64,000 nucleotides of DNA. It comes from an uncultured Alphaproteobacteria bacterium (lineage in GTDB: Bacteria; Pseudomonadota; Alphaproteobacteria; Paracaedibacterales; CAITNM01). The stretch lies in NCBI GenBank assembly GCA_903893805.1, contig CAITNM010000046.1, positions 70,437 through 134,436 on the forward strand, read 5' to 3'. The notes beneath the pieces were generated by a model. The model did no database searches. It was not told the origin of the DNA and saw nothing but the letters and a program-made list of their open reading frames with translations. Positions 30,256 through 38,069 of the stretch are shown here, piece after piece; the stretch's first letter is position 1, and every line of letters starts with the position of its first letter. The position numbers and the translations under genes were made by a program.

Positions 30256-30281
30256 TTTAGCAAAAACACAGGCAGTGTCAA
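30254..30281 (-). promoter_or_regulatory. candidate sigma-70 promoter of groESL
   Basis: The reverse strand reads TTGACA (30281-30276), a 16-nt spacer, then TAAATT (30259-30254). The -10 element abuts or overlaps the CIRCE arm. Confidence 0.5.
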
Positions 30282-30501
30282 GGGATAAGATTTTAAGAGA
30301 GGTCATTTTTTATACAAAAATAGGCACCTAACTTCTCTCTATACAGAATGTCTTTGTTAACAATTTGTTCATCTTAAACATGGTATCCCTAAATTATAAT
30401 GTTCTTTGAATCAATTTTTATCAAAACGATCACATGGATTTTTTAGTAGATAAATATTGAACTATTATTTTAGAATAAGATGTGTTTATGAACTATATAT
30501 T

Positions 30502-31326
30502 ATGACTAGAATCTTATTTTTGTTGTTATTTGCAATGTTACATTGTAGCTACGCAGCCTCTAAGGTTTGTTGGACTTCAGAACAAGATGAGCAATTAATA
30601 GCTAGTATTGAAAGACATGCTGGGAAATCTTGGTCAATAATAGCTGAAGGGGTTGCAGGCAAAATAAACAAGCAATGTCGTGAGCGCTATATGTGTCAAC
30701 TAGATCCAATGATAGATAAAAGTCCTCTTTCTGCTGCAGAAATTTTAACACTTGAATTAGCTGTTCAGGAACTCGGTCCAAAATGGGGTGAAATTTCAAA
30801 GACATTATTCACATTACCCAGTGGAAAAAGAAGAACAGACTTACACCTAAAAAATATTTGGCATTCACAACACAGATCAGAGGTAGGAGGAAGAAAAAGC
30901 ACAGCTTCACATAAAAGGCATTTAGAAGAAGATTTTACTACGATACCACAGCGAGTTTTTTCAGCACTTCCTTCAATTAGTTCAAGCAGCACTAATAAGA
31001 AAAAGAAAGTTCTACACTCTACGGTCATAAGTAGTGTTTTCCGTGCACAACCACTTTATTCATCAACCACCTTAGGTAGCACCCATCTTTTCTCTGCCCC
31101 TCCACTTTTATTAAGTGGTCAACCGCTCTTACTGCCATCTCTCTTAATGCTATCTAGCAACGCGACTCCAACAAGAGATTCATCAGATAGCGACACTTTC
31201 TTACAGCTCTGCTCCAGCAATTCAGTAAGTGATCAGCAGTCTTTGTCCTCAACAAGCATTGTGGCAAACGAAACTTTAAGTGGGCCTGAACTTGCAAAAA
31301 TATTTGAAGAAGGTGGCTTTTGGTAA
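30502..31326 (+). CDS. exported protein with eukaryotic-type R2R3 Myb/SANT DNA-binding repeats
   Basis: Signal peptide MTRILFLLLFAMLHCSYAAS. Then W-x19-W-x..NKQCRERY..LDP..DK and ..GPKWGEISK..RRTDLHLKNIWHS (nt 30571-30867), compared with c-Myb GKQCRERWHNHLNP and RTDNAIKNHWNS. Basic patches (NKKKKV) and a Ser-rich tail. The track starts at TTG 30457. Confidence 0.7.
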   Translation: MTRILFLLLFAMLHCSYAASKVCWTSEQDEQLIASIERHAGKSWSIIAEGVAGKINKQCRERYMCQLDPMIDKSPLSAAEILTLELAVQELGPKWGEISKTLFTLPSGKRRTDLHLKNIWHSQHRSEVGGRKSTASHKRHLEEDFTTIPQRVFSALPSISSSSTNKKKKVLHSTVISSVFRAQPLYSSTTLGSTHLFSAPPLLLSGQPLLLPSLLMLSSNATPTRDSSDSDTFLQLCSSNSVSDQQSLSSTSIVANETLSGPELAKIFEEGGFW

Positions 31327-31520
31327 AGATGCCTCTCTCCTCAGAGAACTCCATATAAAAACACTAGATTAGAATGACCTTTCACCCCAAAATTCTCTAT
31401 AGCTACCACACAATGAAAGCAATAAGAGCACCTTTAATACATCTGGATGTTTTTTTATTGCCCTTTTGATTTGTTTACAGTATTTTTACCACCTATTCTC
31501 AACTAAGAACCGTATAAATT

Positions 31521-35765: not shown

Positions 35766-35929
35766 TTACGATATCAACGTAAATTCTTTCTTACCTTGCA
35801 AGACTTTTTTGAAACCATCTGGTTCATAAATTGAAAAAATAGCAATGGGGGTTTTGTTTTCTTGGGCCAGCGCAACGGCTGTAGCATCCATAACCCTTAG
35901 CTGCTTTTCTTTAACTTGATCAAAGGTAA
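35766..35929 (-). pseudogene. duplicated 3' fragment of pyrH
   Basis: 164 bp align base-for-base with pyrH 38070-38233, with about nine mismatches by eye. The stop codon is included. No upstream pyrH sequence is present. Confidence 0.85.
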
Positions 35930-36061
35930 TCCGGAACCTGTAGGAAACTAAATATCACTAAGAATCATGTCGCAAATAAAACCACACAATTTCGCAATTT
36001 TGTTATTGAAATAATAAAAATAGGTCACTATGTTGATGCAAATGAATATTTTAGGTTTTTT

Positions 36062-38065
36062 ATGATTTTTAATTTTTTCGTACTTTCATTCTTGGTTTTT
36101 ATTAGTTGCGGATTTGCCGCAGAAGCAGCAGCACCTAATACTACAGAATTAAAAGCAGAGGATAGCGTAAATGTACGTTCATTTATTGCACATGAAATAA
36201 GTGCTTTTCTAAAAAGACTTGGGGAAGGAACTTTTGATTTTACAGATGAAGAACGAGATGTCGCATACTATAACAAAGGTGTAGCCGAAGAAAAAGAAGA
36301 AATAAAAAACCTTTTTACACTAAGAATAGAAGCCGGAAAGCTTTTTCAAGATGGTAACTATTTAGAATCTCTTAAAAAAAACATAAAGCTTTTTTATAAA
36401 ACCAGAGGGCAAACATATCTATGTTCAATAATTGATATAGTTAGAAATGCAGGTCTTTTTAATGAAGCCTCTGATTTATACGTTCTGTATGGCCTAATGT
36501 TCAACAGATTACCCATCGTAGAAACAGAAGGACTTCTCATAGGAGGAGCTTCTACTCTAGCAGACCCCACCATTTTTAATTCACATTCTCAACAAAAGCC
36601 AAAACTTATTCATGATATTTGGCAGGGAGTGGCCCCGTATCATTTCGCGACTTCTCCTTTTTTACAATTAAAAGTATGTAGATTTTTTCATGGACTTCCA
36701 GACAGCACTTTTGTGTTGGGAGAATTAATCAGTTTAGGTGTGCTCAATGAAGATCTAGATGGTCATCTCATTACCTCAGTACCCCAACGAAAAGAAGCTG
36801 CAGCTAGTTATTTTCGCTTATCAAAAACACCAAATGCACTATCAGCTCTTGGAGTGATGATTTTAAAAGGTGAAACAGATTTAGATGAAAAAGGAAAAAA
36901 AATTGAAGCGAATAAGCGCTATAAAGTAGCGGCTAGTTTATTTAGAAGAACAAAAACACCATCTGCAGGGTCACTTCTAGCAAGACTAATCTTAGATAAT
37001 AAAATTAATATAGATGAAAACAGACAAGGAATACCAACACTTGCTTTGCGTTACTGGGTAGCTGCTAGGTTGGCTCGCAGAGATCAATCAGAATTGGGGG
37101 TAATTACTCTTGCTGAGTTGCTCGTAAACAATCAAACATTCTACGATGAAGCTGATGAAATACTAACATCTGAGAACCAGCGACACACAGCAGTTGCTCG
37201 AATACTTTTGAGATGTAATACATCGGAAAGCAACTTGCGTTATGCGAATTACCTTATTCATTTTATTCGCACAGATGAAAATGGCACCTCTTTAAACACA
37301 TCAGAGAAAATACTTGGAAAAATATTAGAAATTACCAACACCTTAGATTCGGAAAATTATAGCAAAAAAGGGATGTTGCACCTCATAAGAGGAGCGGCTT
37401 ACCTTGTTCATGGAGCAGCATCTCAGGAAAACAAAAAGAAAGCTTTAGAAGAGCTATACACCGCACTTCAAAATGGTGAAAAGCAAGCCTTATATCATTA
37501 TGAAAAACTCAAAAAAGAAATGGAACATTTGGAAGCTAGTGTATCTATGACTCTTTCCGACATAAGCACTGAACAAGAATCAATTGAGGAAGAATCGGAT
37601 AGTGACTATGACGACTCAGATATACATCTAGATGTTGAATCTTCAACGCCGGCTTCATCCGAAAGTCTCTCCACTTTTAGACAAAAACAAGCAGAAAGTA
37701 CAGCCGCTTGGAAACAAATTATTGAGCAAAGAAAAGCTGCATGGAGAGAAAAAATTGAACTTTTCAGTACGTCTCACATTCGTATGAATGTGGAAATACT
37801 TGAAAAAACCCCTATTGCTGAACGCTGGGCTAAACTAGCCATAAATGGACGCCTTAGATTAGCGGAATTATGGGACCAACGAGTCAGTAATCTTGTGGAT
37901 GCTATTAAAGCAGGAGACACCCGATTAGGTGCCCCCGAAATGCTTGACGGAGATTATGATGGTTGGATGTCGCGACGCATTTCACAAAAGCTTCGATTAA
38001 TTTATAATTTCACTAACGGAATGCTAGTGGTAAAAGAATGCGGACAACATTACAGAGGTAGATAG
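36062..38065 (+). CDS. exported Sel1-like repeat protein with C-terminal YoeB/Txe-like toxin domain (copy B)
   Basis: Signal peptide MIFNFFVLSFLVFISCGFAAEA. The N-terminal ~130 aa are near-collinear with copy A (HEIS.FLKRLGEGTF.FTDEERDVAYY...KTRGQTYLCS). Sel1-like modules and an acidic linker follow. C-terminus 37814-38053 reads GAPEMLDGDYDGWMSRRISQKLRLIY...CGQHY. Confidence 0.7.
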   Translation: MIFNFFVLSFLVFISCGFAAEAAAPNTTELKAEDSVNVRSFIAHEISAFLKRLGEGTFDFTDEERDVAYYNKGVAEEKEEIKNLFTLRIEAGKLFQDGNYLESLKKNIKLFYKTRGQTYLCSIIDIVRNAGLFNEASDLYVLYGLMFNRLPIVETEGLLIGGASTLADPTIFNSHSQQKPKLIHDIWQGVAPYHFATSPFLQLKVCRFFHGLPDSTFVLGELISLGVLNEDLDGHLITSVPQRKEAAASYFRLSKTPNALSALGVMILKGETDLDEKGKKIEANKRYKVAASLFRRTKTPSAGSLLARLILDNKINIDENRQGIPTLALRYWVAARLARRDQSELGVITLAELLVNNQTFYDEADEILTSENQRHTAVARILLRCNTSESNLRYANYLIHFIRTDENGTSLNTSEKILGKILEITNTLDSENYSKKGMLHLIRGAAYLVHGAASQENKKKALEELYTALQNGEKQALYHYEKLKKEMEHLEASVSMTLSDISTEQESIEEESDSDYDDSDIHLDVESSTPASSESLSTFRQKQAESTAAWKQIIEQRKAAWREKIELFSTSHIRMNVEILEKTPIAERWAKLAINGRLRLAELWDQRVSNLVDAIKAGDTRLGAPEMLDGDYDGWMSRRISQKLRLIYNFTNGMLVVKECGQHYRGR

Positions 38066-38069
38066 CTTA

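Follow-up and report, generated by a model that had tools for sequence, protein, structure and literature searches.

We analysed a 64,000-nucleotide window (positions 70,437 to 134,436 of contig CAITNM010000046.1) from an uncultured alphaproteobacterium, in which two pairs of genes for apparently exported proteins lie on either side of frr, within a row of housekeeping genes; all coordinates below are positions in this window. The gene order, from the open reading frame (ORF) listing and profile scans, is groEL-groES, MybA MybB, frr, YoeB-fusion A, YoeB-fusion B and pyrH-tsf-rpsB (Table 1). The last three genes form the right housekeeping border, run in the same direction as frr and encode proteins with 97-99% amino-acid identity to those of four relatives (L002-L005). 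Of the inserted genes, two encode a Myb domain (Myb_DNA-binding, PF00249; curated cut-off 24.4 bits) and two end in a toxin domain (YoeB_toxin, PF06769; cut-off 27 bits). A sequence-only reading of this region had named the Pfam families of the four genes and described their products as exported and as eukaryote-like or toxin-like; the families, Sel1 excepted, score above their curated cut-offs, and the genes, Myb-like or YoeB-like and with signal peptides judged by eye, are lineage-specific. At all four N-termini a few charged or polar residues precede a hydrophobic core of 10-16 residues, and small residues then form a cleavage-type site (MTRILFLLLFAMLHCSYA/AS, MIKILVLILLITPSFTFSLCA, MAHIFRIIIILSIFNSVYSVVA and MIFNFFVLSFLVFISCGFA), which resembles A-x-A in both fusions; by eye we read these N-termini as Sec-type signal peptides. 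An assembly artefact was rejected, since a second, independent ENA contig of 173 kb repeats the arrangement and at least 20 contigs carry fusion B.

A one-genome-per-species scan with the frr product yielded 80 loci (cited by handles such as L003), onto all of which the window proteins were mapped. The best frr matches were Candidatus Finniella metagenome-assembled genomes (97-99% identity), and on sequence grounds we assign the window to a Candidatus Finniella-like protist endosymbiont (Paracaedibacteraceae, Holosporales). Finniella, a member of the Paracaedibacteraceae, comprises cytoplasmic endosymbionts of viridiraptorid amoeboflagellates and Euplotes ciliates (PMC11909080). The claim that the row rpsB-tsf-pyrH-frr is broken over ~4.8 kb by two YoeB genes on the opposite strand was borne out: the pyrH-frr gap is 4,784 bp in the window (33286-38069), whereas all 65 non-Finniella alphaproteobacterial loci that have both genes keep pyrH upstream of frr at a distance of 8-232 bp (median 48). 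If loci with a frr identity of 79% or more are taken as the Finniella clade, seven of its eight evaluable loci have a gap of 0.8-4 kb. We conclude that the break is genuine, far from random and specific to the clade. Comparison of synteny, which the sequence-only reading had proposed, gave a mixed outcome in that the same interruption recurs in every evaluable Finniella locus but one, but the inserted genes are not housekeeping orthologues and the cargo differs from locus to locus. Similarly, uppS/cdsA are indeed missing behind frr, as had been pointed out, but this is not specific to the genome: they are gone throughout the Paracaedibacteraceae, with dksA, hemH, an IS110 transposase or unknown genes in their place, and a distant alphaproteobacterium (L025) has frr-cdsA-dxr-rseP. 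This loss is older than the Finniella slots. In two further Finniella-clade loci with frr 80-85% identical (L008 and L009), frr is not near pyrH at all, and upstream of it in L008 lie RidA-like and threonine-dehydratase-like ORFs (by eye); the pyrH-frr junction is therefore a rearrangement breakpoint too.

The insertions occupy two slots, pyrH-frr and frr-groES, whose contents turn over among strains with frr at least 97% identical. In the pyrH-frr slot, L003 has an A-type YoeB fusion (58% identical to fusion A) together with an unrelated secreted protein of ~490 aa, a B-type fusion is the sole occupant in L081 (674 aa) and L084 (618 aa), the two differing by one repeat unit, L083 has a B-type gene split in two and L004 a 32-codon B-type remnant. 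An unrelated secreted family of ~500 aa fills the slot in L002, L005, L007 and L011, none of which has a YoeB fusion there, L010 has two unknown ORFs, and in L006 the slot is nearly empty and the genes are adjacent. The frr-groES slot holds two Myb genes in L001, L002 and L003, one in L004, L081 and L084, and more distant versions in L007 and L011; adjacency of groES and Myb is kept in L001, L003, L004, L011, L081 and L084. Both slots are thus clade-specific and occupied in almost all relatives, and their cargo depends on the strain. Elsewhere in the Finniella clade no cargo fills the pyrH-frr slot as often as the ~500-aa family, whose proteins carry a signal peptide, lack Pfam domains and do not occur in the window; its members (L002:6709-8217(-), L003:8331-9803(-), L005:8313-9146(-), L007:8295-9818(-) and L011:6415-7959(-)) share 39-73% mutual identity. 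The same slot in L011 also encodes a 526-aa signal-peptide protein (8347-9927(+)) with a GT90-like Glyco_transf_90 domain (E 5e-17), a family made up mostly of eukaryotic protein O-glucosyltransferases.

Within the window, the pyrH-frr slot also carries a scar that the sequence-only reading had not mentioned. Searching the window with pyrH (tblastn) returned a second match between the two fusion genes, at 35769-35942(-), covering codons 184-241 at 88% amino-acid identity, and 35756-35929 is 95% identical in nucleotides to 38060-38233. This remnant of 174-182 bp spans codons ~184-241 of pyrH, the stop codon and 10 nt downstream. When the loci were aligned (alignment A1), the sequence past the remnant's stop codon matched L003, in which pyrH is followed by an A-type gene, and the sequence past the functional pyrH matched L004 and L081, in which it is followed by a B-type gene. 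A- and B-type alleles therefore each normally lie directly against pyrH, and the junction after the pyrH stop, TAATAAGCTATCT, is common to A-type, B-type and emptied loci. In these alignments a B-type unit (the pyrH 3' end, the gene and its upstream spacer) is seen to be joined before an A-type unit, with one crossover inside pyrH and the other at ~35929/35930. Upstream of fusion B only ~70 bp at the start codon are shared with L081, so the second junction can be placed no more finely than this.

The sequence-only reading had taken the YoeB genes for a tandemly duplicated pair. A plain recent duplication is ruled out, as the two fusions are 33% identical overall and the co-duplicated pyrH segment is 95% identical; they are better described as two old alleles stacked by recombination in pyrH. 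Their 5' ends nonetheless share 300 nt at 82% identity (33539-33838 versus 36134-36433), and the N-terminal domain of fusion A is 62-75% identical to that of fusion B compared with 33-52% to its own L003 orthologue, a pattern in which homogenisation of the 5' ends of both copies after stacking can be read from the sequence. In L005, a duplicated 3' fragment of frr (10598-10705; 96% over 108 nt to 32741-32848) lies ~650 bp downstream of the intact frr, with a 194-aa ORF between them. This fragment mirrors the pyrH remnant and suggests that both pyrH and frr may serve as recombination anchors. We infer that recombination between strains was anchored in homologous sequence and that its second junction was illegitimate. 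The pyrH remnant shows concretely how effector repertoires can turn over in reduced genomes that lack mobile elements, by recombination for which a conserved housekeeping gene is the anchor, and a documented scar explaining turnover at an rpsB-tsf-pyrH-frr hotspot is new.

Table 1. Genes and other features of the groEL-rpsB region, in window coordinates.
Feature	Position	Strand	Evidence
groEL	28196-29851	-	ORF listing and profile scans
groES, left housekeeping border	29886-30239	-	Pfam Cpn10, E 1.8e-37
MybA	30457/30502-31326	+	PF00249, 50.5 bits
MybB	31521-32696	+	PF00249, 42.5 bits
Hairpin in the MybB/frr gap	32702-32723	.	Direct reading of the sequence
frr (ribosome recycling factor), intact, alone between both slots	32731-33285	-	TIGR00496, E 1.3e-62
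frr/YoeB-fusion A divergent intergenic region	33286-33463	.	blastn blocks
YoeB-fusion A, 746 aa	33464-35704	+	PF06769, 39.8 bits
pyrH 3' remnant	~35756-35929	-	tblastn and nucleotide self-comparison
YoeB-fusion B, 667 aa	36062-38065	+	PF06769, 32.7 bits
pyrH, intact	38070-38795	-	TIGR02075
tsf, intact	38799-39731	-	TIGR00116
rpsB, intact	39746-40516	-	TIGR01011

We then asked how the four genes compare with their surroundings. Their GC content (0.366-0.388) and GC at third codon positions (GC3; 0.25-0.27) compare with 0.402±0.029 and 0.322±0.046 in the 48 other ORFs of the window, and their synonymous-codon likelihoods have z-scores of -0.06 to -1.7. The composition check proposed in the sequence-only reading (GC, GC3 and codon usage) therefore did not turn out in favour of acquisition: the four genes lie within the native range and are not marked as foreign. 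Ratios of nonsynonymous to synonymous substitution (dN/dS) were estimated pairwise (Nei-Gojobori) against L001-L004, with the groES pair of L001 and the MybA pair of L003 left out. They were 0.46-0.59 for MybA, 0.37 for MybB (against its L001 orthologue) and 0.34 for fusion A, compared with 0.013-0.096 for the housekeeping neighbours and 0.013-0.03 for frr. The dS values of the Myb genes, 0.26-0.41 against L001 and L002 and 0.62 against L004, are broadly comparable to those of the flanking core genes (0.18-0.47), and the Myb genes have therefore been co-inherited with the backbone, evolving 10-40 times faster at the protein level.

These data bear directly on the idea that a mobile element recently brought in the 7.8-kb region as a genomic island and has since lost its mobility genes. 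In keeping with such an island, the four genes are absent from all non-Finniella relatives, their GC3 lies 1.2-1.6 standard deviations under the window mean, their content varies among close strains and the Myb domain is of eukaryotic type. Yet synonymous codon usage is native, dS is alike in the Myb genes and in the core genes beside them, and there are two separate slots, flanking frr, both of which are filled across the clade down to 79-85% frr identity. The TAATAAGCTATCT junction shared by A-type, B-type and emptied loci moreover points to one old insertion followed by diversification in place. As the sequence-only reading had said, the borders have no integrase, transposase or transfer RNA (tRNA) gene, the neighbours being groES, frr and pyrH; no tRNA was found in the whole window, no Rfam family in 29.0-41.5 kb, and no long direct or inverted repeats flanking the block. 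We consider a recent island largely refuted and highly improbable. Of the acquired accessory block that had been proposed, what stands is that it is lineage-specific and interrupts a near-invariant cluster; recent acquisition is at odds with slots that are clade-wide, native composition and Myb dS values similar to those of the flanks.

Turning to the proteins themselves, fusion A consists of a signal peptide, a conserved N-terminal domain, a variable Sel1-like array, an acidic linker, a basic helix and a C-terminal YoeB-fold domain (~35381-35701), and fusion B of a signal peptide, an N-terminal domain, a Sel1-like array (~36779-37531), an acidic linker, basic helices and a YoeB-fold domain (~37808-38062). 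The YoeB domain is confined to the last ~60-85 residues of these 746- and 667-aa proteins, a standalone YoeB being about 84 aa long. The C-terminal pieces match solved YoeB toxins (S. aureus 6l8e and 7bwf; E. coli 2a6q) and M. tuberculosis RelK, with E 2e-8 for fusion A and 2e-4 for fusion B. Catalysis by YoeB was reportedly assigned to Glu46, Arg65, His83 and Tyr84 by Kamada and Hanaoka in 2005. When aligned with E. coli YoeB (2a6q), fusion B keeps all four of these residues, and fusion A keeps Arg65, His83 and Tyr84 with Lys in place of Glu46 (GAPKTL), where its L003 orthologue has Glu. Across the family this position alternates between Glu and Lys (GAPEML versus GAPKTL), P0023, P0027, P0033, P0037 and P0038 being named beside fusion A. 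An AlphaFold2 model of the last 108 residues, based on a 51-sequence alignment in which Arg65, His83 and Tyr84 are invariant or nearly so, has a predicted local distance difference test score (pLDDT) of ~90 over the core and best matches YoeB structures (template-modelling score 0.65, normalised to the target). A profile built from 32 fused C-termini found 439 proteins at E<=1e-6, and among the matches listed (E 1e-17 to 1e-22) there were only standalone-size YoeB toxins. On alignment and model alike, the C-terminal domain is predicted to have the YoeB fold, with the catalytic positions complete in fusion B.

The closest characterised counterpart is therefore the YefM-YoeB toxin-antitoxin system (E. 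coli 2A6Q, S. aureus 6L8E), to which the C-terminal ~85 residues are homologous with a matching predicted fold and the catalytic set kept in fusion B; like YoeB itself, the fusion proteins end shortly after the terminal His-Tyr, here by 3-13 residues. Unlike YoeB, however, the domain is the tail of a Sec-exported repeat protein of 667-746 aa with no YefM/Phd partner and, in fusion A, with Lys46, and its compartment and target are presumably other than the producer's own ribosomes. No antitoxin ORF was found upstream of the fusions, where the spacers of 178 and 132 bp leave no room for one. Downstream, fusion A is followed by the pyrH remnant and fusion B, 4 nt off, by pyrH, with no immunity gene and no orphan cassettes. 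Pfam found no Phd/YefM domain in the fusions at E<=10, and three Phd/YefM-type antitoxins searched against the 64 kb by tblastn, a comparison of low sensitivity, gave nothing below E 0.3.

The four genes could instead have ordinary bacterial roles, the fusions being degenerate or domesticated toxins or periplasmic Sel1 scaffolds with an inert tail and the Myb proteins envelope proteins that reuse a helical fold, with the interruption a result of neutral shuffling in a reduced genome. The NCBI pipeline name 'type II toxin-antitoxin system YoeB family toxin' is compatible with this, as are the change of Glu46 to Lys in fusion A and several relatives, the decaying copies (the L004 remnant and the split gene of L083) and the position of frr away from pyrH in L008 and L009, which would reflect a general loss of synteny. 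However, the proteins are 8-9 times as long as toxin-antitoxin toxins, have a signal peptide and lack an antitoxin, Arg65, His83 and Tyr84 are near-invariant across the 51 aligned sequences, and intact ORFs occur on many independent contigs. In the Myb proteins, the DNA-contact residues are invariant while the rest evolves fast, a pattern hard to fit to a structural role in the periplasm. We therefore regard ordinary roles as improbable, if somewhat less so than a recent island.

The central array is a more difficult case, and the Sel1 label of the sequence-only reading holds only in part. Pfam found neither Sel1 (PF08238) nor TPR in either fusion, even at E<=10. In the AlphaFold2 model of full-length fusion B, however, residues ~240-490 form stacked helix pairs with a short loop insert at a pLDDT of 75-90. 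When this region was searched with Foldseek, Sel1-repeat proteins took ranks 1, 3, 4 and 6, with modest E values (2e-4 to 2e-3); the matches were Legionella LceB and LpnE (E 2e-4 to 5e-4), Oxalobacter Sel1-repeat proteins and SEL1L. The predicted fold, together with distant homologues carrying canonical Sel1 repeats, leads us to describe the array as Sel1-like. The best structural matches, L. pneumophila LpnE and LceB (6DEH, 8SXQ), are likewise helix-pair solenoids from an intracellular bacterium of protists, but identity to them is 14-16%, the window repeats have a conserved loop insert, (E)TD.DE.G, and are missed by the Pfam Sel1 model, and the Legionella proteins have no nuclease tail.

Conservation is distributed very unevenly along the fusions: across the family both ends are conserved, the array between them hypervariable. 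Identity is 62-100% over the C-terminal YoeB domain and 14-41% over the central array, and even between two B-type alleles the array is only 20-37% identical. By these alignments a constant warhead would be combined with a variable scaffold, the reverse of classical polymorphic toxins. This matters for the proposal that the Sel1-YoeB proteins are interbacterial weapons, whether diffusible bacteriocins or polymorphic-toxin-like, directed at competitors, co-symbionts or food-vacuole prey, with immunity encoded elsewhere or unneeded and the Myb genes unrelated. Such a role would accord with YoeB being a bacterial 70S-dependent mRNA interferase (2a6q, 4v8x), with a signal peptide, repeats and a C-terminal toxin arranged as in Sec/type II-exported polymorphic toxins (PMC3482391), with the strong allelic diversity and recombination that recall such systems, and with the polymorphic toxin loci of a related Bodo saltans endosymbiont (PMC8163844). 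It fits poorly with the lack of an adjacent immunity gene and of orphan cassettes, with the reversed pattern of conservation just described, and with an obligate intracellular life, in which bacterial competitors are few. In addition, Sel1/ankyrin scaffolds are typical of eukaryote-interacting proteins, and the RHS, filamentous haemagglutinin and PAAR modules of polymorphic toxin systems are missing. An interbacterial role is in our view unlikely, although it deserves more weight than either of the two explanations considered above.

We also searched for the family beyond Finniella. A word-indexed protein search returned five YoeB-fusion relatives, and the wider family surfaced when the family profile was run exhaustively with HMMER against 1.84 billion representatives, giving 452 matches at E<=1e-3 and 65 at E<=1e-10. 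Among the ~70 long matches retrieved, at least 45 were proteins of 500-1,360 aa (at least 45 clusters at 50% identity) that combine a repeat scaffold with a terminal YoeB domain, most of them with a hydrophobic N-terminus. Their C-terminal consensus reads G[KR]P[EK].L...SRRI...[HD]RLVY...C.GHY, and their arrays grade into canonical Sel1 repeats. One relative (P0122; 995 aa, on a 3.6-kb contig of an NCBI metagenome-assembled genome) has an ankyrin array and the same terminal YoeB-like module, and the warhead is therefore also found on a second eukaryote-type scaffold. The few named members are metagenome-derived and bear the NCBI pipeline label quoted above; the taxonomy of the clusters is mostly no finer than 'Alphaproteobacteria/Pseudomonadota bacterium' metagenome-assembled genomes. 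We found no paper in the searchable literature that joins YoeB, Sel1 and effector. The Sel1/ankyrin-YoeB family is new, being undescribed in that literature and currently mis-annotated as toxin-antitoxin toxins, and so is its combination of a constant warhead with a variable scaffold.

The second pair of genes encodes Myb proteins. The mechanical ORF of MybA begins at TTG 30457, but the true start is probably ATG 30502, since orthologues begin MIRILF.... From there the protein has a signal peptide, an R2R3 domain (~30565-30882), a KKKK basic patch, a tail rich in Ser, Pro and Leu, and a conserved C-terminal LSGPELAKIFEEGGFW motif. MybB is a paralogue 43% identical over the Myb domain, with an L001 orthologue at 78% identity. 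It too starts with a signal peptide, its R2R3 domain (~31587-31877) is further diverged, a KKRK patch is present and the tail is long and of low complexity. That tail contains a 51-nt tandem repeat (32573-32669(+); two copies, 76% identical, encoding SPLSPVAREFSMSRLMN and SPLFPVARENSLSLLMV), which is kept in the L001 orthologue. MybA matches c-Myb R1R2R3 (1h88) with E 1e-22 and R2R3 (1mse) with 5.5e-16, in a single alignment with 38% identity over 105 aa, and MybB is 33% identical to c-Myb R2R3 with altered recognition helices (KQCYTRY, LKSTY). A word-indexed search of 5.8 billion proteins found 17 Myb relatives, all on small contigs and all of the same architecture.

We aligned 17 Myb sequences, comprising 12 relatives, the window's two genes and three locus ORFs. 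K-Q-C-x-x-R-Y in the R2 recognition helix and R-R-T...K in R3 are invariant. MybA has the motifs KQCRERY, RRTD..LKN and LKNIW and keeps the equivalents of c-Myb K128, E132, K182 and N183, which MybB keeps only in part. After the domain come a nearly invariant K-rich patch (KKKK, or KKRK in MybB), the fast-evolving Ser/Pro/Leu-rich tail and a conserved acidic/hydrophobic C-terminal LSGPELAxxFE. That purifying selection falls on exactly the positions through which c-Myb touches DNA speaks for DNA binding as the selected function of the Myb proteins, and DNA binding combined with an export signal would make sense only outside the bacterium. Like eukaryotic R2R3-MYB proteins (c-Myb, 1H88 and 1MSE), they have two tandem repeats (33-38% identity) followed by a basic patch resembling a nuclear localisation signal and by an acidic/hydrophobic C-terminal motif. 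They differ in being bacterial and carrying a Sec signal, in lacking R1 and in having several structural tryptophans replaced (Y, L). We found no specific paper on bacterial Myb effectors; a 2021 review of nucleomodulins lists no Myb-domain effector (PMC7819608), and bacterial genes of Myb-like type have so far been no more than mentioned, in surveys of genomes (PMC10579323). The Finniella-specific family of signal-peptide R2R3-Myb proteins is new.

Together, these observations lead us to propose that the pyrH-frr and frr-groES junctions of a highly expressed housekeeping backbone have become long-lived insertion hotspots in the Finniella clade, holding genes for exported, fast-evolving and probably host-interacting proteins. 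Sec would export the Myb proteins, which, released to the host, would enter the nucleus by way of the K-rich patch and bind Myb-type sites through the R2R3 domain, as mimics of host transcription factors. In the Sel1-YoeB proteins, the hypervariable Sel1-like array would dock the protein on a host, or less likely a bacterial, partner, and the constant C-terminal YoeB-fold ribonuclease (RNase) would be the warhead, cleaving ribosome-bound mRNA. No antitoxin or immunity gene would be needed, because the protein is proposed to leave the cytoplasm unfolded. We are largely confident of the hotspot and its turnover by recombination; that the cargo consists of host effectors we judge about evenly poised, and the statement as a whole, hotspot and host-directed effectors combined, we consider moderately probable. 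A more specific version, in which a widespread, hitherto unrecognised class of Sec-exported 'ribotoxic' effectors would carry a constant YoeB RNase on a hypervariable Sel1 or ankyrin scaffold against host (80S or organellar) translation, without an antitoxin, and would in Finniella be paired, at one recombining hotspot of the translation-factor operon, with nuclear R2R3-Myb proteins that reprogramme host transcription, is put forward tentatively and is in its entirety rather doubtful.

Several published findings are precedents for a host target. RelE, of the YoeB superfamily, cleaves A-site mRNA on 80S ribosomes (PMC3632111). In the survey by Zhang, de Souza, Anantharaman, Iyer and Aravind (Zhang et al. 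2012, PMC3482391), proteins with C-terminal toxin domains on Sel1, ankyrin or TPR scaffolds and without immunity genes, from Odyssella, Amoebophilus and Wolbachia, were presumed to be host-directed. The window's fusions resemble these proteins in their signal peptide, repeat scaffold, toxin at the extreme C-terminus, lack of a neighbouring immunity gene and occurrence in protist symbionts (Odyssella, Amoebophilus), but that survey describes no YoeB-tipped Sel1 family and recorded classical RelE only once among polymorphic toxins. From polymorphic toxin systems as such they differ in their constant toxin domain and hypervariable scaffold and in lacking orphan cassettes as well as RHS and filamentous haemagglutinin repeats. 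For the Bodo saltans endosymbiont, host addiction through secreted toxins has been put forward (PMC8163844). This bacterium, Candidatus Bodocaedibacter vickermanii, is likewise a member of the Paracaedibacteraceae in a protist host with secreted toxin-like proteins thought to act on that host, whereas its loci are toxin-antitoxin pairs and orphan modules with a link to type VI secretion and the window genes are single, Sec-signalled and set among ribosomal and chaperone genes (PMC8163844). Eukaryote-like and toxin-tipped repeat proteins are already known in protist symbionts. For the Myb proteins, the nearest comparison is with the nucleomodulins HsvG, HsvB and the TAL effectors (PMC7819608), the last of which establish that a bacterial protein can act as a host transcription factor.

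A number of points weigh against host-directed effectors, or against parts of the proposal. Export past the inner membrane, host entry, nuclear import, DNA binding and RNase activity are inferred only, and Sec signals take proteins only as far as the periplasm. A dN/dS below 1 does not by itself prove an arms race, and relaxed constraint on low-complexity tails raises dN/dS too. With Lys at the Glu46 position in fusion A and several family members, some copies may be inactive or may work differently, perhaps by a RelE-like basic mechanism. The alignment behind the 108-residue model consists of YoeB homologues, which biases the fold that way, so that the model corroborates the assignment without being independent proof of it; the full-length model of fusion B has a mean pLDDT of 57 and, with values below 50 there, says nothing useful about either the N-terminal domain or the C-terminus. 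Lastly, L001 and several further loci are contig ends, where the state of the slots is uncertain.

If the Sel1-YoeB proteins do act on the host, a toxin-antitoxin RNase would have been repurposed as the warhead of an exported effector. Annotations of 'type II TA toxin' in symbiont and pathogen genomes would then read differently, and there would be a tractable test of YoeB-type interferases on eukaryotic ribosomes. The Myb proteins would, if the proposal is true, be the first bacterial effectors with a bona fide R2R3 Myb domain, and their target motif should be predictable. Should the proteins be periplasmic, the locus would still be a clean case of a clade-specific hypervariable slot inside a highly conserved gene row.

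The intergenic regions offer some further observations. Next to frr, ~80 bp of the divergent region at 33286-33463 are kept in all Finniella loci whatever lies upstream (blastn blocks reach 33365-33367 in L001, L002 and L005), and this conservation makes them a candidate frr promoter and 5' untranslated region. Promoter-like hexamers occur at 33349-33314(-), but their density is not above that of shuffled controls, and the promoter/terminator scan gave counts equal to those of the controls (32 versus 29.8±6.2 and 6 versus 8.5±3.1), so that no claim of an frr promoter rests on the scan. MybB and frr converge, and the hairpin in the 34 bp that separate their stop codons has a perfect 8-bp stem (TGAGGTCA-CAATTT-TGACCTCA) without a T-run and may be a bidirectional terminator; the terminator scan gave no call there. 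Fusion B and pyrH are likewise convergent, with stop codons 4 nt apart (38063-38072), compared with 34 nt for MybB and frr (32694-32733), and at these abutting pairs effector and housekeeping transcripts may overlap as antisense. At the other end, groES and MybA are divergent, with a spacer of 217-262 bp.

Other ORFs on the same backbone are of related interest. NCBIfam has no family for either Myb protein, nor for the neighbours orf379 and orf180. The former, a 379-aa ORF adjoining groEL (26865-28004(-)), has a clear signal peptide (MKYSKRFILIVTCLLNVSYAA), an S-adenosylmethionine-methyltransferase-like motif (VADVGCGLG) and a weak Pfam match to Methyltransf_12 (E 0.002, below the cut-off). 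In L011 (32% identity) and L083 (weak Methyltransf_23 match) a homologue lies behind groEL, and the ORF may be a further exported effector beside the same backbone. The 180-aa ORF (40683-41225(-)), between rpsB and a RuvX-like gene, has a signal peptide and no family match; it is missing in L002 and L004 (spacer ~160 bp), present in L082, L083 and L084 and distantly represented in L011, so that the rpsB side looks like a third small variable slot. Further away, a 456-aa ORF (22926-24296(+)) has an N-terminal hydrophobic segment and, by eye, histidine-kinase and receiver-like motifs, and its GC3 of 0.219 is the minimum of the window.

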